A stretch of DNA of 64,000 bases from an uncultured delta proteobacterium (lineage in GTDB: Bacteria; Desulfobacterota; Binatia; DP-6): contig CAWFFN010000009.1 of NCBI GenBank assembly GCA_963815115.1, forward strand, positions 704,001-768,000, read 5' to 3'. The position numbers were made by a program, and so were the translations under genes. Of the stretch, positions 40,694 through 55,141 are shown one piece after another (position 1 is the stretch's first letter; each line of letters begins with the position of its first letter). Under the pieces are notes generated by a model. It searched no databases, was not told where the DNA came from, and saw only the letters and a list, made by a program, of their open reading frames with translations.

Positions 40694-40845
40694 GCGACGG
40701 AGGCTCTGCGGTCTCGCGGCCCCCTTCCCCAGACGAGGGCGGAGGTGGCATGCTCCGCGCACGCGGGAGGACAGCAAGGTCGCATCGTAGCTAGCCGCCT
40801 CCGCCCGGGATCCCCGGGCGGGGTTGACGGAACGGAGGCAGGACG

Positions 40846-41625
40846 ATGCGGGGACGGCTCGTCGGCGGGCTCACGATCGCCGTCGTGGTGCTGGTCGCGC
40901 GCCAGGCAGGCGCGGCGGCCTTCTACATCCAGGAGCAGAGCGTGGCCGGCACGGGGCGCGCCTATGCGGGCGAGAGCGCCGTCGCGGACACGCCGGCGAC
41001 GATCTTCTTCAACCCCGCCGGGCTGACCTACCTCGAGCGCCCCCAGGTGATGGGGGCAGGCTACGCCATCCTGCCCGACGCCAGCTTCGACGACAGGGGG
41101 ACGACGGCGCGAACGCCGGCGACCTTCGGCGCGTTTCGCCGGGTCGGGGGGAACGACGGAGGCAATCCCTACGGGCCCACAGCGCTGGGCAACTTCTACG
41201 CCTCGATGCCGGTCGTCCCCGGACGGCTCTGGCTCGGGCTGGGCGCGACGGCGCCGTACGGCCTCCTCGTGGTCTACAACTCGACCTGGTTCGGGCGCTA
41301 CGACTCGACGAAGAGCCGGCTCGTGACCTTCAACTTCGCGCCCACGGCGGCCGTGCGGGCGACCGACTGGCTCTCCCTCGGCGTGAGCCTCAACATCGAG
41401 CACGCCTATGCACTGCTGCGCAGCGCGCTGCCGAACGCGACCACGCCGGGCGGTCCGACCGCGAAGAGGTCATGCCCCTCGGGCACGCCTGCGTGGCGCA
41501 GAGCGGCGTTCGCTTCTGCCCGACGACGTCGCTCGCCCAGCGCGTCCCGATGCGGGACGGCGTGCCGCTCGACGTCGACGTCACGCTGCCGGCCACGGGC
41601 GACGGTCCATTCCCCGCCATCGTGA
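40846..41625 (+). pseudogene. fadL: Truncated FadL/OmpP1/TodX outer-membrane long-chain fatty acid transporter (N-terminal ~195 aa only)
   Basis: Signal peptide, then FYIQEQS..GRAYAG, TIFFNPAGL, APYGL and WFGRYD. Similarity is lost after ~41435 and the frame runs into nonsense over the next gene. Confidence 0.75.
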
Positions 41626-43184
41626 TGCTGCATGGCCTGGGAGGGACCAAGACGGACTTCGAGTCCCTCACGCCCGCCGGCACCAGCAACGCCACCTTCC
41701 ACTACAACAACGTCTTCTTCGCGCAGCGCGGCTACGCGGTGGTGAACTACAGCGCCCGGGGATGGGGCAACTCGTGCGGGGTGCCGGCATCGCGCACGCC
41801 CGCGTGCGTGCACGGCTGGATCCATCTCGCCGACCAGCGCTGGGAAGCGCGCGACGCGCAGGAGCTTCTCGGGCTCATGGTCGACGCCGGCCTCGCCGAT
41901 CCCGACGGCCTGGGCGCCACCGGCGTATCCTACGGCGGCGGGCAGAGCCTCGAGCTCGCCGGGCTGCGGGACCGGATCCGCGGCGGCGACGGGAAGCTCG
42001 CGCCCTGGCGCAGCCCGGGCGGTCGCCGGCTGCGCATCGCCGCCGCCTGGCCGCGCTGGCCATGGGTCGATCTCGCCGCCGCGCTGTTGCCGAACGGACG
42101 CTTCCGCGACGACCGGGCGCGCAGCGTCCTGTCGACCGGCAAGCCGATCGGGGTCGACAAGCTGAGCTATGCCGAGATCCTGCTGGCGATCGCCCAGAAC
42201 TCGGCGTTTCTCACGATGCCGAACGAGGATCCGACGTGCGACCTCAGCACCTGGGCCGCCGCGCTCGAGGTGGGCGAGCCCTATGCGGTCAAGGTGCGGG
42301 CCGTCGAGGACGAGCTGCACGCCTTTCACGGCGCCGTCGGCCTGGTGCGCCGGCGCCGCCCGGCGCCCCTGCTCCTGATGTCCGGTTTCACGGACGACCT
42401 CTTTCCCGCCTCGCAGGCGCTGCGCGTTCACCTCGCGCTGCGCCACGAGCGGCAGGCGGTGCTCCAGCTCGGCGACCTCGGCCACCCCAGAGCGCAGAAC
42501 AAGCTCGACGAGTACGCCCTGTACAACGAGCAGGGCGCGCGGTTCTTCGACTCGTATCTGCGCAAGATCGGCACGCCGCCCGCACCGGGCTCGGTGACGG
42601 TGTTCACGCAGACCTGCCCCGCGACCGCGCCCGCAGGCGGGCCGTTCACGGCGGCCGCGTGGGAGGATCTCGCCACGGGGACGTTCCGCCTCGGCGATGC
42701 GGCGCCGCAGACGGTGACGTCGGATGGTGGCGACCCGGCGGTCGCGATGGCCACCGACCCGATCCTCGGCTTCGGCGCCTGCGCCATGGTGCCGGCGCGC
42801 GATGCGCCCGGCACGGCGGTCTACACCGCAGCCAGCCCCGGCTTCACGCTGATCGGCCAGCCCACCCTGACGGCGCACGTGCGCACGAAAGGGCCTTTCG
42901 GGCAGATCGTCGGACGCCTGTGGGACGTCCGACCCGATGGACAGCAGACCCTGATCGCGCGCGGTGTCTATCGCCTGCGCCCGCACCAGAAGGGCCGTAT
43001 CCTGTTCCAGCTCGAGGGCAACGCCTACGAGTTCGCGGCCGGCCATACCGTCCGCCTCGAGCTGGTGGGCAGCAGCCCGCCGACCTTCCGGCCGAGCAAC
43101 GGCACGTTCTCGGTGACCGTCGAGGAGGCGGAGGTCGCGCTGCCGACGCTCGGGGGAAGCCCGTCGGGGGCGTTCCTCGAGTGA
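41472..43184 (+). CDS. CocE/NonD (peptidase S15-like) alpha/beta hydrolase
   Basis: RDGVPLDVDV, MLHG.GG, GYAVVNYSARGWG, nucleophile GVSYGGG and a C-terminal jelly-roll (GHTVRLEL). It ends in SPSGAFLE. Confidence 0.85.
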   Translation: MPLGHACVAQSGVRFCPTTSLAQRVPMRDGVPLDVDVTLPATGDGPFPAIVMLHGLGGTKTDFESLTPAGTSNATFHYNNVFFAQRGYAVVNYSARGWGNSCGVPASRTPACVHGWIHLADQRWEARDAQELLGLMVDAGLADPDGLGATGVSYGGGQSLELAGLRDRIRGGDGKLAPWRSPGGRRLRIAAAWPRWPWVDLAAALLPNGRFRDDRARSVLSTGKPIGVDKLSYAEILLAIAQNSAFLTMPNEDPTCDLSTWAAALEVGEPYAVKVRAVEDELHAFHGAVGLVRRRRPAPLLLMSGFTDDLFPASQALRVHLALRHERQAVLQLGDLGHPRAQNKLDEYALYNEQGARFFDSYLRKIGTPPAPGSVTVFTQTCPATAPAGGPFTAAAWEDLATGTFRLGDAAPQTVTSDGGDPAVAMATDPILGFGACAMVPARDAPGTAVYTAASPGFTLIGQPTLTAHVRTKGPFGQIVGRLWDVRPDGQQTLIARGVYRLRPHQKGRILFQLEGNAYEFAAGHTVRLELVGSSPPTFRPSNGTFSVTVEEAEVALPTLGGSPSGAFLE

Positions 43185-46503: not shown

Positions 46504-47268
46504 TCAGGCGGCGATCGCGGCCGACCGACCGCGGTGACGCCGGTACATTTCCAGGACCCAGCCGACGCCGGGACGCGCTGCGACGGATTCACGGACGCGT
46601 GTCATCGGTTCCGGCATTCTGCGCTGCGGTGGATAGGGAAATTCCGGAGGTACAACCAGCGGAGAAAACAGCGCCGCCGCGGTCAGGTCGGCGACGCTGA
46701 AGCGGTCTCCCACGAGATATCCGGAAGGTTGCAGCTCGCTCTCCAGTCGGTCGAGCGCAGCGAACGTCTTCTTTCGGCTGACCTCGACGCTGGCGTCGTC
46801 GATCTGCAAGCGCTTCCGCAGCACGAGGCTCATCATCGGAAAGGCCATGCGCATCGCGACTCGAGTGGCCAGGCCGCTCTCGGAGGAGAAGGCGGAAACG
46901 ACGAAGCCGGGGTCGGACAGCATCAGGTGAAATCCGACCCGCCGGATGTGCGGCCCGAGCTCCTCGTCGAAGAACTCCTCGAGCTCCAGGGCGCGGGCGC
47001 GCTGGACCGGATCACGAGGATAGAGCGGCGGCTCTGGGAAAGTCTCTTCGAGCGCGGCGATGATCCGCGTGGAGTCGTGAATCGTCCTCCCGTTCAACTG
47101 GAGGACCGGCACCGCCGTTTGCCCGGTCATCTTCTTGACCGTCGAGGCGTGGAAACCCGGGACCAGAGGACGGCGGACGTGATGGACGCCCTTGTAGTCG
47201 AGCGCCCAGCGCGCCTTCTCGTTGAAATGGGAAAAGATGAAGTGCCAGAGAACCGGGTGCTGTTCCAC
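46504..47268 (-). CDS. Glutathione S-transferase family protein
   Basis: SHFNEKARWALDYKG, VPVL, DSTRII and YLVGDRFSVADL. AGGAG precedes GTG 47268. Confidence 0.9.
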   Translation of the reverse strand: MEQHPVLWHFIFSHFNEKARWALDYKGVHHVRRPLVPGFHASTVKKMTGQTAVPVLQLNGRTIHDSTRIIAALEETFPEPPLYPRDPVQRARALELEEFFDEELGPHIRRVGFHLMLSDPGFVVSAFSSESGLATRVAMRMAFPMMSLVLRKRLQIDDASVEVSRKKTFAALDRLESELQPSGYLVGDRFSVADLTAAALFSPLVVPPEFPYPPQRRMPEPMTRVRESVAARPGVGWVLEMYRRHRGRSAAIAA

Positions 47269-47328
47269 TGCGAGACTCCTCACGGTTACGGCCGTCGCCG
47301 GCAGATTTGCATGAGGATTGGACGTCAC

Positions 47329-47358
47329 CGTCTACGGGCTGAAGTTGACTATGTCAAC
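47329..47358 (-). promoter_or_regulatory. GST promoter (TTGACA-17-TAGACG) with a palindromic operator over the -35
   Basis: GTTGAC-TAT-GTCAAC at 47344-47358 overlaps the minus-strand TTGACA (47352-47357). The -10 is at 47329-47334. Confidence 0.6.
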
Positions 47359-47940
47359 ATCAGAACACGGGAGCAGGCGTGCCGTGCCACCATGGCAGCC
47401 TTCGCCCTGGGGGTGGTCGGAACGGGTGGGCCGCAGCCCTGGCGCCGTACCGGGATGCACGAACCTTTCTGCGTGGGGCCGGCGGGGACGGCGCGGGGTC
47501 TTCTACCAGCGCACTCGCCATAGGCGACCCTGCTCGACGGCTTGTCCTTGTTTCCACCGTCATTTTCCCTTGACTGGAGGCTCGGTCGTATGTGAGGAAA
47601 CTAGCCGTCGATGAAGTGCAACAGGCTAGGGAGGGGCGAGGGTAGCGCGGTCTCTCTGACGAGCGCCATCAGATCGCGCGGTGTACCAGACGCGCGTGTG
47701 GGCTCCCGGTGACTCTCCTGGCCTGCTTCCCCTTGCTCGGGCTGCTGACGTACCCGTCCGCCGCACCGTCGACGAGAAGGCACCCAAAGCCCAGCTGCCC
47801 GAGCCGATCGGGTGCTGGTCACTCTCGCCTTCGATAACACCAGCCATTCCCTCTTGCACATGAGCGAGATCCCCCAGTCGTCCACGGGAATGCCGGGAGA
47901 GCGACATTGGAGTCGGAACGACAAGAGGAGGGGAACCCCC

Positions 47941-48546
47941 ATGGGACGATCGGCTGCTTCTCTTGGATTCTGGGTCGGCATCGTGGCTGCGGCCACCGTC
48001 GCCGGGTGTGGCAGCGTCGAGAAGCAGTTCCTCGACGCGCTCAACGCATCAAGCGAGAAGAAGGTGTGCGTCCAGCCAAGTGAACTCGGGGTCACGGTGT
48101 ACTCGAGCCGGGACGGGAAGGCTTACCTGGCGGCGGAAGATCCGCCCTTCGGCGGACCACCGCCAGTCAAGGCTCTCGACGCGCTCCGCGCACGCGGCTA
48201 CGCCCAGAAAGAGCCGTACATGATGCAGGTAAACTACGCGCCGCTTCCTGGGTATGAGATCACGGAGAAGGGGCGACCCATTTTTCCGAGGAACGGGCCC
48301 GTGTGCATCGGCGAAAGGCACGCGACCGAGATCATCGACTATACCGAGTCCCAAGGTGGTGGCCCGGTCCAGGGCTCGCAGGTCAACTTCAAGTACGAGG
48401 TCGAGTTCAACGATCTGATCAAGGACTTGGGGCTAGCGGAGGAATTGAGCAAGCACTTGACCCTCCTGCGCAACACCGAGGGCAAGGGCCAAGCCATGTT
48501 CGTCAAGACCAACAAGGGTTGGCGCCTGGAATCGGCGATGTGGTGA
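47941..48546 (+). CDS. Hypothetical lipoprotein
   Basis: GAGGAGG upstream; lipobox VAGC; ends in FVKTNKGWRL. Confidence 0.75.
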   Translation: MGRSAASLGFWVGIVAAATVAGCGSVEKQFLDALNASSEKKVCVQPSELGVTVYSSRDGKAYLAAEDPPFGGPPPVKALDALRARGYAQKEPYMMQVNYAPLPGYEITEKGRPIFPRNGPVCIGERHATEIIDYTESQGGGPVQGSQVNFKYEVEFNDLIKDLGLAEELSKHLTLLRNTEGKGQAMFVKTNKGWRLESAMW

Positions 48547-48678
48547 GGCTCCCCGGTGACTCCAAGCTAGACCAGACGCGGGCCATTTCCTCGCCATCGT
48601 GCCTGCTCGGCTCGGCTCCGGCGCGGAGGATGAGCCAGCGATGTGGTCGAGATGGCAGGAGTGTAGACCGGAGAGGAC

Positions 48679-49104
48679 GTGATCCGTTTCGTCGGCACAG
48701 CGACCGCCGGTGTCCTGTTCGCCCTCGGTCTTCTGCATGTCTACTGGGCCGGAGGAGGAGGGTGGGGGACCGACGTGACGATTCCGAAGCAGGGCGGCCA
48801 GCCGCTGTTCCGGCCGCGCCCGGCTGGAACCCTGCTCGTTGCGATCCTCCTGCTCTCGGCGGGCCTCGTCGTGTCGGGCCGGGCCGGGCTCTGGGGCATC
48901 GCCTTCCCTCGTTGGCCCTTCGTCGTCGGGACCTGGGCTCTCGCGGCCGTCTTCGTCGGCCGTGCCGTAGGCGACTTCAGGTGGTTTGGCCTCTTCAAGC
49001 GGATGAGAGGAACGGCCTTCGCCCGGTGGGACACGTGGCTCTTCGTCCCGCTCTGTCTGCTTCTCGGTCTCGGATGCCTGGTCGTGGCCCTCGGCGAACA
49101 TTGA
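48679..49104 (+). CDS. DUF3995-like membrane protein
   Basis: LHVYWAGGG.W, RAVGDFRWFGLFK, FARWDT..F.PLC. Confidence 0.8.
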   Translation: MIRFVGTATAGVLFALGLLHVYWAGGGGWGTDVTIPKQGGQPLFRPRPAGTLLVAILLLSAGLVVSGRAGLWGIAFPRWPFVVGTWALAAVFVGRAVGDFRWFGLFKRMRGTAFARWDTWLFVPLCLLLGLGCLVVALGEH

Positions 49105-49129
49105 GACGGGATCCCCGCGCCGACAACAC

Positions 49130-50365
49130 TCAGGCGACCGGCACGGACACTTCCAGCGGCGCCTTCCGACCGCGCACGTGGACCGCGCGGGGCGCCGACA
49201 TGGCGATGCCGTCGCCGAGCTGTTGCCGGGTCGCATCGGAAACGAGGACGTCCACACCCTCCACCTTGGTCAGCTCCTGCAGCCGCGCCGCGACGTTCAC
49301 CGCGTCGCCGACGATGGTGTAGTCGCGGCGCTGCGGCGTCCCGATGTCGCCCAGGACGACCGTGCCGGTGTGGACGCCGATACCGATCCGCAGCGGCGGC
49401 TCGCCGTGTCCTCCCCGTTCCGCGCCGAGCGCCGCGAGGGCCGCGCGCATCGCCACCGCGCACCGCACGGCGCGGGAGGCATGGTCCGGCTGCGGGACCG
49501 GCGCACCGAAGTACGCCATCAACCCGTCGCCCAGATACTTGTCGAGCGTCCCGCCGTGCGCGAAGACCACGTCCACCGTACGTTCGAAGAACACGTTCAG
49601 GAGCGCGACGACGTCGGGCGCGGGCATCGCTTCGGCGAGCGGGGTGAAGTCCCGCAGGTCGCAGAAGAGGATCGTCACCTCGTGCGTCTGGCCGCTCACT
49701 GCAAGCACGGACGACTCCGCGAGTTGCGCGGCGACCTGCGGCGAGAAGTAGCGCTGGAGTCGCTCGCGGCGCCGCTGCTCGTCGGCGACCTGCTTGACCA
49801 GCACAGAGGACCGGCCGCTCGCATAGGCGAGCACGACGCCGATCAGCGCGATCCCCATGACCGTCATGACCATGACCCCCCTGTCCCAGCTTCCGCTGCG
49901 CAGCATGAGGACCACTTCGCAAGCGGCGGCGACTGCCGCCGCGACCGTGAGGCGCCGGCGGTCGAGGGCGAGCGATGCGAGCACCAGTAGGCCAACGTAG
50001 TACAACGCCGCGTGGGCCGAGAGCCTGGACGCGTCCGGATCCAGGCCGGCTGCGCGCAGCGCGTCGATGATCCGTGAGATCAGGAGCAGGAGCATCGGCA
50101 TGTCGACGAGGGCGATCGCCAGGCTGCCGGCCCGGGCGATCCGTTCCGAGCGGATGCCGCCCACGAGGAGCGCCCCCGCCGCGGCGGTCCAGCCGATGAG
50201 GAGGCCGACGGGCGCGCCGATCCAACCCGGCATCGTGAGCGCGAACAGCGTCTCGACCGCGCCCGCCAGCAGCAGCCCGACGAAGCGGAAGGCGTTGATC
50301 CGCCGTGCGTTGCGGAGCCGCTCCGCCTCGAGCGCGGCGTGCACGGCACGGTCGCCGTCGCCCAT
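49130..50365 (-). CDS. Membrane-bound class III adenylate/guanylate cyclase
   Basis: TM N-terminus, [30 protein letters not shown] and [12 protein letters not shown]. Confidence 0.93.
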
Positions 50366-50441: not shown

Positions 50442-51492
50442 CTAGGCGGGCACGCCCTCGATCACGCTGACGCGGGCAGGCGTGGGGACGATCTTCGTCA
50501 GCCGGAAGCCGGCCGCGTCGAACAGCGCGCGGAACTCCGACTCCGAGCGCTGGCGGCCGCCGGTGCACACCAGCATGTTGACGTCGTTCGCCGCTGCCCC
50601 CCGGCTCTCCAGCGACTGCTCGATCCGCGGCGGATAGACGCCCTCGACGATCAGCAGCTTGCCCGTCGGGCTCATCGCGCGGTGGCAGTTCGCGAGGATC
50701 GTGACGGCCCGGGCATCGTCCCAGTCGTGGATGACGTGCTTCAGCATGTAGGCGTCGGCCCCGCCCGGTACCTGCATGAAGAAATCGCCGGCGACGGCCG
50801 CGCAGCGCTCCGCGAGACCCGCGTCAGAGATCTGCTGCGTCGCGCGTTCCACGGCCGCGGGCCGGTCGAAGACCGTCCCCTGCAGCGCTGGATGCGCTCG
50901 CAGGATGCCGATCAGGAGCGCTCCGTTGCCGCCGCCGACGTCCACCAGGGTGCGCAGCGGCGCGAAGTCGTAGGCAGCCGCCACGGCGACGGCTGCGAGG
51001 CGGGTGAAATCGGCCATGGCCGCGTCGAAGTTCGCGGTCTCCTCGGGATCCCGTAGCAGGTCGTCGAACGGATCGGTGATGCCCCGGCGCCGATACGCGG
51101 GCTCGCCGGTCTGCACGCAGTATTCGAGATCCTTCCAGGAGTCCTGAACCCGGGTCCCGGCGAAGAGCATCACCGACGCGCGCATCGAACCAGGGACGCC
51201 GGCGCGTAGAGGCTCTCCGAGCGGCGTCAGCGCGAACCTTCCGTTCTCCTGCTCGTCGAAGATGCCGACGCTGGCCAGGAGCCGCATGACGCGGTTGAGC
51301 GACGCCGCGTGGGTCGCGGTCGTCCGGGCCAATTCACGCATAGTGACGGGGGCCGTCGGCGAGCAGGTCGGCCAGCCCCAGCTTCGCCGCCACGTGGAGG
51401 GCGCGCGAAACGTAGTGGCCGATCGACATCTGGTAGAGAGCCAGCTGCGGCGGTAGACCTTGAGACTGCGGAGCGCCCTCGTGCGGTGCCAT
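50442..51492 (-). pseudogene. SAM-dependent O-methyltransferase (Methyltransf_2 with dimerisation domain), frameshifted by one extra base near 51335-51352
   Basis: ATG 51492 reads MAPHEG...SRALHVAAKLGLADLLADGPRHYA* (TGA 51334-51336). The next frame continues ELARTT..LNRVMRLLAS...VDVGGGNG...GDFF...KHVIHDWDD. Confidence 0.85.
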
Positions 51493-51673
51493 CGTATCCT
51501 CGCGTTCCCGCCGCCAGCGGCGCGGTGCACCTCACCCCGACCCGGCGCGCACCGCTCAGCGTGGCAAGCGACTTCCATCGGACCGCTAACAGAGTCGTTT
51601 CGCCGACGTCAAGATCGATCCGTGGCGCAGACCCCGCAAGCAGCAAAGGGCCTGGCCGAGCCGGAGCCTCACT

Positions 51674-52867
51674 CTAGCCGAGCGCCGAGGCAATCGCGGC
51701 CAGCGCGCGGTCGGCCTCCGCATCGCGCAGCACCAGCGGGGGAGCCAGGCGGACGACCGTGTCGCTGTGCAGCGTCCAGTTGAGGATCAGCCCCCGCTGC
51801 CACGCCTGGCGGACGAAGCGATCGCACGCGCCGGCGTCGGCGAACGCGAGCCCGAGGAGCAGGCCGATGCCGCGCACCCCCGCCAGGCCGCCGCGCCCCA
51901 CCAGCGCGCGCAGGCGGCGCAGCATCTCCTCTCCGAGCGCGGCGGCGCGCTCGACGAGACGATCGCGCAGCAGGATGTCGAGCGCCGCCAATCCCGCCGC
52001 GCAGGAGACGGGATGGCCGCCGAACGTCGTGACGTGGGCGAGCGGCGGGTTCTCGCCGAGGGTGCGCATGAGCGCCGGAGCGCCGACGAACGCTCCCAGC
52101 GGAAGCCCGCCCCCCAGAGCCTTCGCCAGCACGAGGAGGTCGGGAACCACGCCCCAGTGCTGGTGGCCGAAGAGGCGCCCGGTCCGTCCGAACCCGGTGA
52201 CCACCTCGTCGAACACGAGGAGCGCGCCGACCGCGTCGCAGCGCCGCCGGAGCGCGGCGAGGAAGTCGCTTCCCGGGACGCGTACGCCGGCTTCCGCCTG
52301 CACCGGCTCGACGATGACCGCGGCGGTGCGCTCGTCGATGCCCGCGAGGGCGCCGACGTCATCGAAGGGCAGCAGGTCGACCCCTGGCAGCAGCGGTTCG
52401 AACGGCCGCCGGTAGAGCGCGTTGCCGCCGACCGAGAGCGCGCCCCAGGTATCTCCGTGGAAGCCTCCATCGAAGGCCACGAAGCGGGGCCTTCCCGTCG
52501 CCTTGCGCGCCGTCTTGAGCGCGCCGTCGACGGCCTCCGCGCCACTCGACGTGAAGTAGACGGTGGAAAGCGGCGGCGGCAGCAGGCCGGCGAGCTGCGC
52601 CGCCAGGCGCACCTGGGCTTCCTGCACGAACTCGCCGTAGACCATGACGTGCAGGTGGCGAGCCGCCTGCGCCGTCACCGCGGCCACCACCTCGGGGTGC
52701 GCGTGCCCGACGTTGGCGACGCCCATGCCGGCGAGCAGGTCCAGGTACTCGCGTCCCTCGACGTCGCGGACCACCGCACCCCGGGCGTCGGCGACGACGA
52801 GGCCCATCGGTGCGGACGACGTCTGGCAGACGTGACGCAGGAAGAGGGCGCGCAGGTCGTCGCTCAT
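51674..52867 (-). CDS. Class III PLP-dependent aminotransferase
   Basis: YLDLLAG, GHAHP, SGAEAVDGALK, EPVQAEAG, DEVVTGFGRTG, the PLP lysine in LAKALGGG and TTFGGHP. Confidence 0.93.
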   Translation of the reverse strand: MSDDLRALFLRHVCQTSSAPMGLVVADARGAVVRDVEGREYLDLLAGMGVANVGHAHPEVVAAVTAQAARHLHVMVYGEFVQEAQVRLAAQLAGLLPPPLSTVYFTSSGAEAVDGALKTARKATGRPRFVAFDGGFHGDTWGALSVGGNALYRRPFEPLLPGVDLLPFDDVGALAGIDERTAAVIVEPVQAEAGVRVPGSDFLAALRRRCDAVGALLVFDEVVTGFGRTGRLFGHQHWGVVPDLLVLAKALGGGLPLGAFVGAPALMRTLGENPPLAHVTTFGGHPVSCAAGLAALDILLRDRLVERAAALGEEMLRRLRALVGRGGLAGVRGIGLLLGLAFADAGACDRFVRQAWQRGLILNWTLHSDTVVRLAPPLVLRDAEADRALAAIASALG

Positions 52868-54048
52868 GCGGGCTCGATCTCCAGCTCCGGGGGCGCCGGC
52901 AGGCCGAGCAGGGTCCGCAGCGGCGCGCGCTGGCCGCGGGGCCACGACAGGCGAGGCCGCTGCATGCGGCCCGGCGCGCAGACCCGCGCCACGCCGAGCC
53001 GGCGGAGCGTCTCGACGTCCGGCTGGATGCCGGAGAGGCCGACGCACTCGACGGCGTGCGGCGGGATCATGTCGCGCAGCGACCCGAGCGGGCGGATCCA
53101 CACCGTCCGCCGTCCCGGCGCCGTGAGGGACGTCCGGTCGTTGCCCACCAGGACGGTTCCTCCGACACCGGCGAGCACGGTGGCGCCGGCCCACTCGGCC
53201 TGGGCGACGGCCGCACGATGGGCGCCGCGCTCCTCGATCTCCAGCGGTCCGGGCGGCAGCGTTCCGCCGAGAGCGTCCAGCGCTGCGGCCAGGCGCTCGG
53301 CGAAGGCATGCGTGTCTCCTTCGACGTACACCGCGTGCGGCGACAGGCAGCCGCGCTGATCGTGCAGGGCCACGTCCATCGCGATCTGCCCGGCGAGCAC
53401 ATCGGCGCCGGCGGACGCCTCGCGGCCGATGACGACGATGCTCGACCGCTCGCCGTGTGCGATGACACGATCGCCGAGACGCCGGGCGAGCGCCGCGAGC
53501 GTCACGTCGTGGCCGGTGGCGACGACGACGTCTGCCTGCCCGAGCGCCGCGCGCTCGCGCTTCTCGTCGCCGCCCGGCCAGTAGGTCGTCACGACGGTCT
53601 CCGCGAGCTCCGCGTCCTCGGCCGCGAGCGCGCGCCGGAAGGCGGTCGCCGAGCACGGATCGGCGCGGCCGGACTTTATCAGCACCGCGGCGCCGGCGAG
53701 GCAGCCGAGCGCGATGGCCGGCAGGGCGAGGGCCGGTACGTTCGAGGCGAGCACGTGCGCGACGAGCCACGGCCGTAGCAGGGGTCCGCCCGTCAGCTCG
53801 CGCTCGACCAGCGCGAGCATGACGTCGACGTCGAGCGCGGCCGCCGCGATGGCGACCCCGGCGTCGACGACGGGCGGCGACAGGCGCGCGACCGGCGGCA
53901 GCTCGTCGTGCAGCGAGGCGTCGTCCCGCCAGCGGGCCGCGGCGGCCGCGAGTGCGGCCGCCACCTGCCGTCGCGGCCGGCGCGCAAGGCAAACGCTCGC
54001 CTCGCGCGCGGCTGCCACCTCGCGCGCCAGCTCGGCGGCAGGGATCAC
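52864..54048 (-). CDS. LuxC-like acyl-CoA/acyl-protein reductase
   Basis: HVLASNVP, W.GG, ATG, HG.RSS and catalytic DQRGCLSPH; G.MQRP...W. GTGA/ATGA overlaps with both neighbours. Confidence 0.85.
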   Translation of the reverse strand: MIPAAELAREVAAAREASVCLARRPRRQVAAALAAAAARWRDDASLHDELPPVARLSPPVVDAGVAIAAAALDVDVMLALVERELTGGPLLRPWLVAHVLASNVPALALPAIALGCLAGAAVLIKSGRADPCSATAFRRALAAEDAELAETVVTTYWPGGDEKRERAALGQADVVVATGHDVTLAALARRLGDRVIAHGERSSIVVIGREASAGADVLAGQIAMDVALHDQRGCLSPHAVYVEGDTHAFAERLAAALDALGGTLPPGPLEIEERGAHRAAVAQAEWAGATVLAGVGGTVLVGNDRTSLTAPGRRTVWIRPLGSLRDMIPPHAVECVGLSGIQPDVETLRRLGVARVCAPGRMQRPRLSWPRGQRAPLRTLLGLPAPPELEIEPA

Positions 54049-55107
54049 GGCACCAGGTCCGCGAGCAGCAGCCCGCACCCTCTCGGCGCCGCGTCCGGCA
54101 CGCGCCCGACCACCGCGATGCCGTCGTCGCCCGCGGTGCGACCGAGGTCTTCCGTCAGCACGACGGAGACGGAGCCGGCGTTGGCGAGATCGTGATGGCA
54201 GAGGAGCCCGACGGTGCCCGCGGGCACCGGCGCCAGCGTGTCGGGGTCGAGCACGCGAGTGCGCAGCCAGGGGGGCGCCACCAGCCGGCGCGGCGCCAGG
54301 CTCCGGCCGGCGAACCGATCGCGGAGCACGCTCTCGTAGCGCTGCGAGCAGAGCTCGGTCATACCGTACTCGTTCACGCAGAAGTAGCCGGCCACGCCGA
54401 GCTGCGTCCAGCACGCCCGGAGAAAGCCGGCCCGCGAGAGGGCCCGCGGCATGCCCTTGGCGCCGCCGGTGTCCATCACCCGGCTCGCCGGGCCGAGGCG
54501 AACCGCGGGCGTCGCGGCGAAGAGGCGCACGAAGCCGGCGGTCGGTCCCGCGACCAGCACGGCCTCGCCGCAGGCTTCGAGCTCGCGCAGGCGGTCGGCC
54601 AGCCGGCGGAGATCGAGCCCGTCCGCGCCGCCGAACCACTCGGCGTCGGTCCCGCTCTCGGCAGCGATCCACTCGCACATGCGCACGAGGGAGGACTCGG
54701 GCCGTTGCGGCGGCGGCGGAAGGAGGAACAGCGCCGGCAGCCTCGCGCCGTCGGGCAGGAGGAAGCGCGCGAAGGTGGTCAGGGCCGACGCTCGGTAGAG
54801 GTCGAGGTGGGGCACGAGGTGGCGTCCGCGCGCCTCGGGCCCGCCGCTGGTCCCGCTGGTGCGGAAGACGGCTTCCGGCGGTGCCGCAGGCGAGGTCGGC
54901 GTGCCGGAAGGCCGCCGTCGGCACCGGCGGCACGTCCTGCCACGACCCGACCGTGGCCGGGGTGACGCCGCGGCGCTCGCAGAAGGCGCGATAGGGTGCG
55001 TTGCGCGCGAACTGGTGCGCGAAGACGCGCGCCGCCCAGGCCTCGAACGGGAAGGCGTCGTCGCGGGTGGCCCGGATGACCGCGGCCAGCTCGGCCTCGA
55101 GAGACAC
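54045..55107 (-). pseudogene. LuxE-like acyl-protein synthetase, frameshifted near 54883 (real or sequencing indel)
   Basis: Frame 1 reads FAHQFARNAPYRAFC...VPPVPTAAFR. Frame 2 reads PEAVFRTSGTSG...MDTGGAKG...NEYGMTELCSQ.Y...DLAN..S...TEDLG...GR....PRGCG. Confidence 0.85.
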
Positions 55108-55112
55108 GTGGC

Positions 55113-55141
55113 AGCCTAGGAAGCACGCCCGAGGGTGTCAA
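55113..55141 (-). promoter_or_regulatory. Sigma70-type promoter of the luxE-like operon (leaderless geometry)
   Basis: TTGACA (55136-55141), 17 nt, TAGGCT (55113-55118), 5 nt, GTG start. Confidence 0.65.

Follow-up and report, generated by a model that had tools for sequence, protein, structure and literature searches.

The operon described here lies in a stretch of 64,000 nucleotides (hereafter the window) from an uncultured delta proteobacterium of the class Binatia (GenBank assembly GCA_963815115.1, contig CAWFFN010000009.1, positions 704,001 to 768,000 of the forward strand), in a region with a G+C content of about 72%. It consists of three genes on the minus strand, whose predicted products are a LuxE-like synthetase, a LuxC-like acyl-thioester reductase and a class III aminotransferase that uses pyridoxal phosphate (PLP). 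The operon holds up as a real and conserved unit, and the mechanism proposed for it is plausible: the trio would probably act as a self-contained module that turns a carboxylic acid into a primary amine. The features of the locus, numbered from the first letter of the window, are the following:

55107-54045, minus strand: luxE-like gene, with a GTG start at 55107 and two frames separated by a +1 frameshift near 54878
54873..55107, minus strand: N part of the luxE-like gene, in the frame of GTG 55107, comprising the first 78 codons
54045..54878, minus strand: C part of the luxE-like gene, comprising the remaining 277 codons, with the P-loop FRTSGTSGG and the C-terminal PRGCGL
54876..54880, minus strand: site of the luxE +1 frameshift, where CCGCCGG has an extra C compared with the orthologues
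52864..54048, minus strand: luxC-like acyl-thioester reductase gene, 394 amino acids (aa), with Cys234 in DQRGCLSP
51674..52867, minus strand: class III aminotransferase gene, 397 aa, with PLP lysine K249, belonging to a distinct trio-linked clade
55113..55141, minus strand: promoter-like element, made up of TTGACA (55141-55136), a 17-nt spacer and TAGGCT (55118-55113)
51492-50442, minus strand: O-methyltransferase gene (PF00891), with its frame broken near 51350

The genes of the trio are joined by overlapping start and stop codons, GTGA between luxE and luxC (54048-54045) and ATGA between luxC and the aminotransferase gene (52867-52864), as had been claimed in an earlier reading of the DNA letters alone (the sequence-only reading). 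The catalytic motifs named there were all found as well, that is, FRTSGTSGG and PRGCGL in the LuxE-like protein, DQRGCLSP in the LuxC-like protein and AKALGGG in the aminotransferase. As for the three-gene unit itself, the claim stands for luxC and the aminotransferase gene, which are intact, and has to be qualified for luxE, which is not a single open frame.

The luxC-like open reading frame (ORF) matches the Pfam LuxC family (PF05893) with E=1.1e-35 and 123.7 bits (cut-off 21), and residues D230, Q231, G233, C234, L235 and S236 are invariant across 11 LuxC homologues. A profile of 11 LuxC homologues compared with solved structures gave a sole strong match, the LuxC of Photobacterium phosphoreum (7XC6_A, E=4.7e-35), in which the cysteine of YDQQACFS (equivalent to Cys296) aligns with that of DQRGCLSP. 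The AlphaFold model of the reductase (predicted local distance difference test, pLDDT, 91.5) has the same protein as its top structural match (7xc6_A, Z 37.7, root-mean-square deviation 2.5, 378 residues aligned), with the runner-up at Z 32.4; model residues 1-384 superpose on residues 44-455 and 10 residues remain beyond. Compared with luminous LuxC, the reductase lacks about 85-95 residues, having 394 aa against a deposited chain of 477 residues that is numbered to 488. Since the protein ends 10 residues past the aligned part, it has no counterpart of the segment P460-P488, which in the luminous complex belongs to the neighbouring LuxC subunit and forms the roof of an L-shaped hydrophobic cleft (>40 Å) that receives the C14 chain (PMC9157457). 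At most, the missing roof hints that the modelled enzyme would handle an acyl group that is not long-chain. A predicted complex between the LuxC-like protein and the aminotransferase returned a score of 0.00, that is, 'no answer', and offers no evidence either way.

With regard to the luxE-like gene, its C part scores 33 bits against the Pfam LuxE family (PF04443, cut-off 24.9), and its N part alone 16.9 bits (E=0.0032), under the cut-off. A scan of the whole genome with PF04443 gave 33.6 bits and a sole LuxE match. The N part shares 53-77% identity with the corresponding ends of intact orthologues. An intact LuxE orthologue matches the solved LuxE 7XC6_E (E=2.1e-10), and a search of the ESM Atlas with an intact orthologue recovered LuxE-family clusters only. 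In all 15 aligned LuxE homologues, (R/K)GC(S/G)L is found near the C-terminus, 8-20 residues from the end. The cysteine of RGCG is the presumed acyl acceptor, in agreement with the luminous enzyme, where the C-terminal motif TRxxKGCxLS carries the acyl-accepting Cys364 (PMC9157457), from which the acyl chain moves on to Cys296 of LuxC (PMC9157457, PMC12041015). From its length (~354 aa) alone, we infer that the luxE-like protein would be devoid of the C-terminal subdomain of adenylate-forming enzymes.

The linkage of the trio was surveyed at several distances. Within Binatia, 41 close and class-level relatives, the own genome included, were searched and 20 of their loci were fetched. A LuxC-like gene is present in 39 of the 41, and luxE, luxC and the aminotransferase gene are collinear in the 14 same-family loci without exception. 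Among the six loci from other families, the trio is collinear in three and the aminotransferase gene adjoins luxC in four; in one other-family locus (L032), luxC and the aminotransferase gene are adjacent and tblastn detected no luxE, and in two of the six genomes the orthologue is unlinked, lying 10.5 kb off in G031 and on a separate contig in G039. A copy of the aminotransferase at 58-84% identity occurs in each of the LuxC-bearing Binatia genomes (39/39), while the two genomes lacking LuxC (G026 and G034) hold only the ArgD paralogue, at 39-43% identity; a paralogue at 36-47% identity is found in all 41. In a wider sample of the class, the LuxC-like gene is present in 164 of 201 genomes, a tally that takes in the unpublished genomes G097, G190 and G194, all of them positive, and it was found in none of the genomes searched from three families, here called f3 (0/16), f14 (0/13) and f16 (0/3).

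Outside the class, a pattern scan of the genomes of 185,579 species provided 421 confirmed relatives, the best 80 of which make up the wider loci. Their record labels include Binatia, Nitrospirota, Myxococcales, Verrucomicrobiota, Thermoanaerobaculia, Elusimicrobia and Armatimonadota, among others. In these 80 loci, luxE is present in 73, and an aminotransferase of 52-79% identity lies directly downstream of luxC in 46 (within 503 nt in 44 of them). A more distant aminotransferase (35-42% identity) stands directly upstream of luxE in another 14, so that an adjacent aminotransferase is found in 60/80 loci overall. In the remaining 20, the fetched DNA contains no aminotransferase, although in four of these it extends less than 200 nt past luxC. 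The linkage thus survives the survey of neighbourhoods, which had been proposed as a means of checking it, and it recurs amid differing gene neighbourhoods in several phyla. The module is widespread and clearly under selection, and occurs in Binatia, Nitrospirota, Myxococcota and other groups.

A search for longer LuxC relatives turned up five proteins. Two of them, P0004 (830 aa, found on 5 contigs) and P0005 (870 aa), are fusions in which a full LuxC domain is followed by a linker of 40-60 residues and a full aminotransferase domain with the HGDT motif discussed below. These two clean fusions are the strongest sign that the reductase passes its product to the aminotransferase. P0003 is LuxE joined to part of LuxC. 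Another candidate, P0002, was not counted as a fusion, its junction being garbled and probably a frameshift artefact.

The loci with the upstream arrangement deserve a separate mention. It was observed in L085, L088, L091, L093, L095, L097, L098, L106, L110 and L112 (Myxococcales, Deltaproteobacteria, Coxiellaceae and others) and in the Verrucomicrobiota loci L080, L083 and L086. The upstream-type aminotransferase forms its own clade, carries leucine at the position discussed below as Asp or Arg and does not have the Glu/Arg pair for 2-oxoglutarate; in eight loci, the gene before it codes for a conserved protein of ~494 aa that matches no Pfam family. The upstream type is a different enzyme, whose leucine would fit a hydrophobic aldehyde.

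Clustering of the ORFs of the 80 loci revealed no conserved fourth partner; the recurring neighbours were all local. In six loci (L045, L052, L059, L066, L078 and L103), the next gene after that of the aminotransferase encodes a Zn-dependent alcohol dehydrogenase, which suggests that the aldehyde may also become an alcohol in some lineages. In loci of Verrucomicrobiota type, a major facilitator superfamily (MFS) transporter gene is placed between luxE and luxC in four cases (L070, L090, L100 and L107), and a gene for a QueD-like 6-pyruvoyl-tetrahydropterin synthase follows luxC in five (L070, L087, L100, L101 and L111). No aminotransferase was seen in the fetched flank of this variant.

The third gene of the trio encodes a member of the class III family (PF00202, E=1.3e-98, 330.8 bits), in which AKALGGG occupies residues 248-254 and the PLP lysine is kept in all aligned groups. 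The concern that it might be the only argD-type enzyme of the genome is removed by the seven PF00202 matches found there, the top-scoring of which (C5:983445-984554, on contig 5) adjoins argB (C5:984731-985420). As argC is located on contig 8 (C8), the arginine pathway is complete without the window aminotransferase. Neither of the ArgD models is reached (NF002874, 362.8 bits against a cut-off of 457; TIGR00707, 340.7 against 410), and the LysJ model, at 314.5 bits, is also below its curated cut-off. In the phylogeny, a quick maximum-likelihood tree with supports from the Shimodaira-Hasegawa-like approximate likelihood ratio test (SH-aLRT), 19 trio-linked enzymes form a clade distinct from 12 ArgD and 8 upstream-type enzymes, each clade with a support of 99; one row first labelled ArgD (G029) grouped with another paralogue and was left out of the ArgD counts. 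The trio-linked aminotransferase, as placed by tree and models, is not ArgD. Its closest sequence relatives are nevertheless ArgD and LysJ, the nearest solved one being the acetylornithine/acetyl-lysine aminotransferase of Thermus (1VEF, E=1.2e-82). The PLP lysine and a Glu/Arg pair are retained in the trio enzyme, which differs in forming a separate clade, in having Asp for Arg and a three-residue MVY insertion, and in not being arg-linked.

The exchange of Arg for Asp is the main clue to the substrate. The motif (F/Y)HGDT is present in 19/19 trio-linked enzymes, FHGRT in 12/12 ArgD and YHGL(T/S/G) in 8/8 upstream-type enzymes, and Asp139 of the window enzyme occupies the position of the arginine that binds the substrate carboxylate. 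This arginine is Arg141 in AstC, which salt-bridges the carboxylate of succinylornithine (PMC3590144), and Arg180 in human ornithine aminotransferase (OAT), which does so with that of ornithine (PMC9136103); AcOAT, OAT and GABA-AT have it in common, and the putrescine aminotransferase YgjG carries Lys183 (PMC4244111). In a HMMER alignment to YgjG (4UOX), Asp139 stands opposite Lys183 and Met48 opposite Phe91, and the MVY insertion falls directly before the position of Gln119 (numbering counted from the printed alignment), a residue engaged in binding the far amine of putrescine. Given the invariant Asp in the arginine position, the substrate is most likely one without a distal carboxylate, which would set it apart from N-acetylornithine, ornithine and GABA. 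The conserved acidic side chain would suit a substrate with a polar group or a positive charge. The co-substrates are likely glutamate and 2-oxoglutarate, because the Glu192/Arg373 pair, equivalent to Glu235/Arg413 of OAT, is kept in 19/19 trio-linked enzymes. A paralogue in the own genome (C5:145152) also has YHGDT. This paralogue is presumably BioA, and a literature search on the corresponding aspartate found nothing, so the likeness between HGDT and the BioA motif is that of this single paralogue.

From these elements, the following route can be proposed. The LuxE-like enzyme would adenylate the acid with ATP and bind the resulting acyl group through a thioester to the RGCG cysteine in its flexible C-terminal tail. 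This tail would then carry its acyl load to the LuxC-like reductase and transfer it to Cys234, where the thioester would be reduced by NAD(P)H to a free aldehyde. Finally, the class III aminotransferase, with PLP on Lys249, would aminate the aldehyde, L-glutamate being the likely donor. The module is inherited across most Binatia and is also present in Nitrospirota, Myxococcota and others. The claim of an acid-to-aldehyde-to-amine unit is thus upheld in its core by the conserved linkage, by the co-occurrence within the class (39/39 vs 0/2) and by the fusions; the two parts of it that fall away or become doubtful are the O-methyltransferase as a partner and the fatty nature of the substrate.

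Comparison with known systems helps to place the trio. With the luminous LuxC-LuxE complex (7XC6), it has in common the two families, the pair of thioester cysteines and the aldehyde-dehydrogenase-like fold of the reductase (Z 37.7), and it differs in being coupled to an aminotransferase and in standing apart from the other lux genes. No luxAB was found among the scanned neighbour ORFs, and no luxD was found anywhere in the genome (LuxD, PF02273, no match in the whole genome). This agrees with the absence of luxAB and luxD claimed by the sequence-only reading, with the limit that the Pfam scans that saw no lux gene covered selected ORFs around the unit and that luxAB were not searched for genome-wide. 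The scores against the NCBI equivalogs are likewise distant, with 55.4 bits vs a cut-off of 750 for LuxC (NF052251) and 33 vs 550 bits for LuxE. The view that the coupling of luxE, luxC and aminotransferase would be unrelated to light production holds up. Non-luminous pairs are in fact described in the flagellin glycosylation islands of Aeromonas, where luxE and luxC occur without luciferase (PMC7874193). The genes found with these pairs encode an acyl carrier protein, a ketoreductase and glycosyltransferases, and the presumed role is the attachment of a lipid to a sugar; in the available text of that report, a class III aminotransferase is not named alongside them (PMC7874193).

Another comparison concerns the enzymes TamH, PigE and TabE/TabA, the last from the cluster of the tambjamine BE-18591. 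PigE reduces a thioester. The logic that these systems share with the trio is the conversion of a thioester into an aldehyde and of the aldehyde into an amine by a class III transaminase. A single chain of TamH combines thioreductase with transaminase (bioRxiv 10.1101/2025.08.11.669332). TamH and PigE fuse reductase and transaminase in the manner of P0004 and P0005. The differences are that TamH, PigE and TabE/TabA are encoded in secondary-metabolite clusters, act on carrier-bound fatty acyl chains and have other types of reductase, whereas the trio has LuxE-type activation and belongs to the core genome, and no carrier protein turned up in its neighbourhood. The PigE model gives 289.7 bits (cut-off 850). 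PigE was also considered as a LuxC-aminotransferase fusion and rejected, the LuxC profile having no match to the PigE structure 4PPM. A literature search found no paper describing a conserved luxE-luxC-aminotransferase operon, subscription journals being outside its coverage. The trio extends the acid-reducing LuxE-LuxC pair, familiar mainly from bioluminescence and from the flagellin glycosylation islands, by a dedicated aminotransferase as conserved partner, natural fusions included. It might represent a compact acid-to-amine enzyme set of interest for biocatalysis, and the switch of Asp for Arg offers a simple sequence marker to separate the trio enzymes from ArgD, with which automatic annotation names them alike.

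Several points weigh against the reading of the trio as an amine-forming module. Every chemical step in it is drawn from homology, the LuxE-like protein matches its solved counterpart only weakly (E=2.1e-10), the single luxE of the genome is frameshifted in the assembly, and the kin genomes are not independent samples. The aspartate of the pocket narrows the class of substrate and falls short of naming it. In 7 of the 80 wider loci, tblastn detected no luxE beside luxC; four of these keep the downstream aminotransferase (three labelled Nitrospirota and one labelled Candidatus Troglogloeales). In addition, 16 of the 76 evaluable loci, mostly of Verrucomicrobiota, have luxE-luxC without an aminotransferase in the fetched flank, and therefore the reductase pair can work without this aminotransferase. 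The same 16 loci, together with the fact that synteny within one family can last without any functional link, would suit the idea that the adjacency is mere inherited gene order and that the aminotransferase is independent of luxE-luxC. This idea is scarcely credible, since the linkage recurs over several phyla with differing surroundings, the presence and absence of LuxC and of the aminotransferase orthologue agree within the class, the stop and start codons overlap and fusion proteins exist. Nearly as improbable is that the enzyme would be a second aminotransferase of ArgD/LysJ type, with luxE-luxC replacing ArgB/ArgC or LysZ/LysY in an alternative branch of arginine or lysine synthesis. LuxE and LuxC are chemically equivalent to the kinase and the reductase of those pathways, the best NCBIfam matches are the acetylornithine transaminase models (362.8 bits) and LysJ (314.5 bits), and 1VEF is the nearest solved relative; against this, every NCBIfam score is under its curated cut-off, aspartate replaces the carboxylate-binding arginine in all 19 trio-linked enzymes, and genomes without the trio still keep ArgD. 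The own genome has, besides the argB-argD pair and argC, one PF02784 decarboxylase match (a candidate LysA), and the alternative arginine route was rejected on the presence of argB-argD and argC.

The nature of the acid is a separate question. The sequence-only reading had favoured fatty amines or amino-lipid precursors, and a long-chain fatty acid finds some support in the luminous LuxEC pair, which reduces myristic acid (PMC9157457), and in TabE, which clusters with LuxC in a similarity network and, with the class III transaminase TabA, makes dodecylamine (bioRxiv 10.1101/2025.08.11.669332). Neighbours related to the envelope and lipids at other loci (lipid A acyltransferases, KpsF, TamB and GpsA) are consistent with it as well. 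A fatty substrate becomes doubtful, however, in view of the invariant Asp139 at the substrate-anchoring position, a place at which a fatty chain would call for a hydrophobic residue (the upstream type does have leucine there), and of the reductase model, which has no tail equivalent to the segment that roofs the long hydrophobic cleft; moreover, no acyl carrier protein or thioesterase was seen in the neighbourhood scans, and LuxD is missing from the genome. A bolder and rather improbable reading is that the trio could be an undescribed route of primary metabolism, common to Binatia, Nitrospirota, Myxococcota and further soil lineages that are mostly uncultured, leading from an acid through its aldehyde to a small polar or cationic amine, e.g., a diamine from an omega-amino acid, with the aspartate of the aminotransferase binding the positive charge of the substrate. 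If true, this would be a carboxylate-reduction entry to amine and polyamine metabolism that is independent of amino-acid decarboxylases, and, with a small polar acid as substrate, abundant soil bacteria would have a new biosynthetic way into amines. The own genome, 100% complete by marker count, contains a pyruvoyl-dependent arginine decarboxylase (C5:890403-890933, 203.8 bits), the PF02784 match and a weak spermidine-synthase-like match, and neither the arginase/agmatinase family nor OKR_DC_1 has a match in it. The agmatinase family occurs in 21 of the 201 Binatia genomes (one of them the unpublished G170) and is not enriched in the families lacking the trio (f3 0/16, f14 2/13, f16 0/3). Polyamine complementarity was therefore dropped and, as no complementary pattern is seen for agmatinase, the diamine idea stays speculative.

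A different objection is that, in this genome, the unit would be a decaying remnant, the frameshifts in luxE and in the O-methyltransferase gene being real and no product being made. An alignment of the DNA with three same-genus orthologues locates one extra base near 54878, and the N and C parts share one frame in the same-genus orthologues. If the luxE frameshift were real, the module would be inactive in this strain. In favour of decay are the two +1 frameshifts within 3.6 kb, the lack of a second luxE in the genome, and rpoB and rpoC (~8 kb together), which are each a single open frame and indicate that indels are not everywhere in the assembly. On the other hand, both events consist of a single extra C in a run of C, that of the O-methyltransferase gene in a five-C homopolymer, a pattern typical of sequencing errors. 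The luxE halves are otherwise intact, sharing 72-81% identity with their same-genus counterparts, the other two genes are intact, and so is the trio, with luxE in one frame, in all 14 same-family relatives fetched. Decay in this strain is accordingly a quite possible explanation, and the balance leans slightly to a sequencing or assembly error over a real mutation.

Other attempts to settle the luxE frameshift were of little help. In the public reads, the best run contained 0.12 of the sampled words, and contigs built from four runs stop outside 54870-54880. A hidden-Markov frameshift scan based on the G+C content of third codon positions (GC3) gave, with a loose filter, 237 candidates on 3 contigs, with six of the six inspected being false or ambiguous; with a strict filter, it gave 66 candidates on 5 contigs and missed the luxE site itself, so that the method is too crude. 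A Pfam check of eight candidate junctions found no single domain clearly split between frames.

Upstream of the trio, the sequence claimed as a TTGACA-17-TAGGCT promoter is indeed there, and TTGACA, the spacing, TAnnCT and the GTG are kept in 4/4 same-genus genomes, with a spacer of differing sequence; yet a sigma-70 consensus scan missed it (0 sites), TAGGCT matching the -10 hexamer at only 3 of 6 positions. The conservation within the genus lends modest support to a genuine promoter. Because the TAGGCT ends 5 nt ahead of the luxE GTG start at 55107, the mRNA of the operon may be leaderless or nearly so.

Downstream of the trio, on the same strand as claimed, the O-methyltransferase gene (PF00891, E=8.5e-51) has its true start at ATG 51492, 181 nt past the stop of the aminotransferase gene. 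It runs for 52 codons to a stop at 51336 and continues in another frame to 50442, the break falling at the five-C run near 51350 (51336-51355). A role as partner of the trio is not borne out, considering the gap, the frameshift and the tblastn searches, in which neither the O-methyltransferase nor the downstream adenylate cyclase (PF00211) had a match in the 20 Binatia and 80 wider loci (0/100 for the former). Both are, on this distribution, best considered as neighbours unrelated to the trio. In the window, the divergent neighbours encode a small tetratricopeptide repeat (TPR) protein and a family III CoA-transferase. The latter is present in the fetched stretch of 14/14 same-family loci (75-90% identity, tblastn) and is beside the trio only inside the family. 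At other loci, the recurrent neighbours are genes of housekeeping or envelope function, namely prfB, groES/EL, a SpoU methylase, KpsF, lipid A acyltransferases, TamB and GpsA. The neighbourhood scans turned up no gene for a carrier protein, thioesterase, polyketide synthetase or peptide synthetase. In this setting, the trio would be part of core-genome metabolism rather than of a natural-product cluster.

Two further observations were made elsewhere in the window. The stretch 47261-49132 (~1.9 kb, G+C ~0.65-0.68) has a lower G+C content than its surroundings and no clear coding-frame signal in the GC3 model, and Pfam recognized none of the long ORFs tested in it. On the plus strand (40828-41625 / 40791-43184), an ORF for a FadL/TodX-type transporter covers positions 2-176 of a profile of 421. 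After this ORF, the coding signal of 40791-43184 shifts frame into an S15 (X-Pro dipeptidyl) peptidase, which points to either a truncated gene or a further frame problem.

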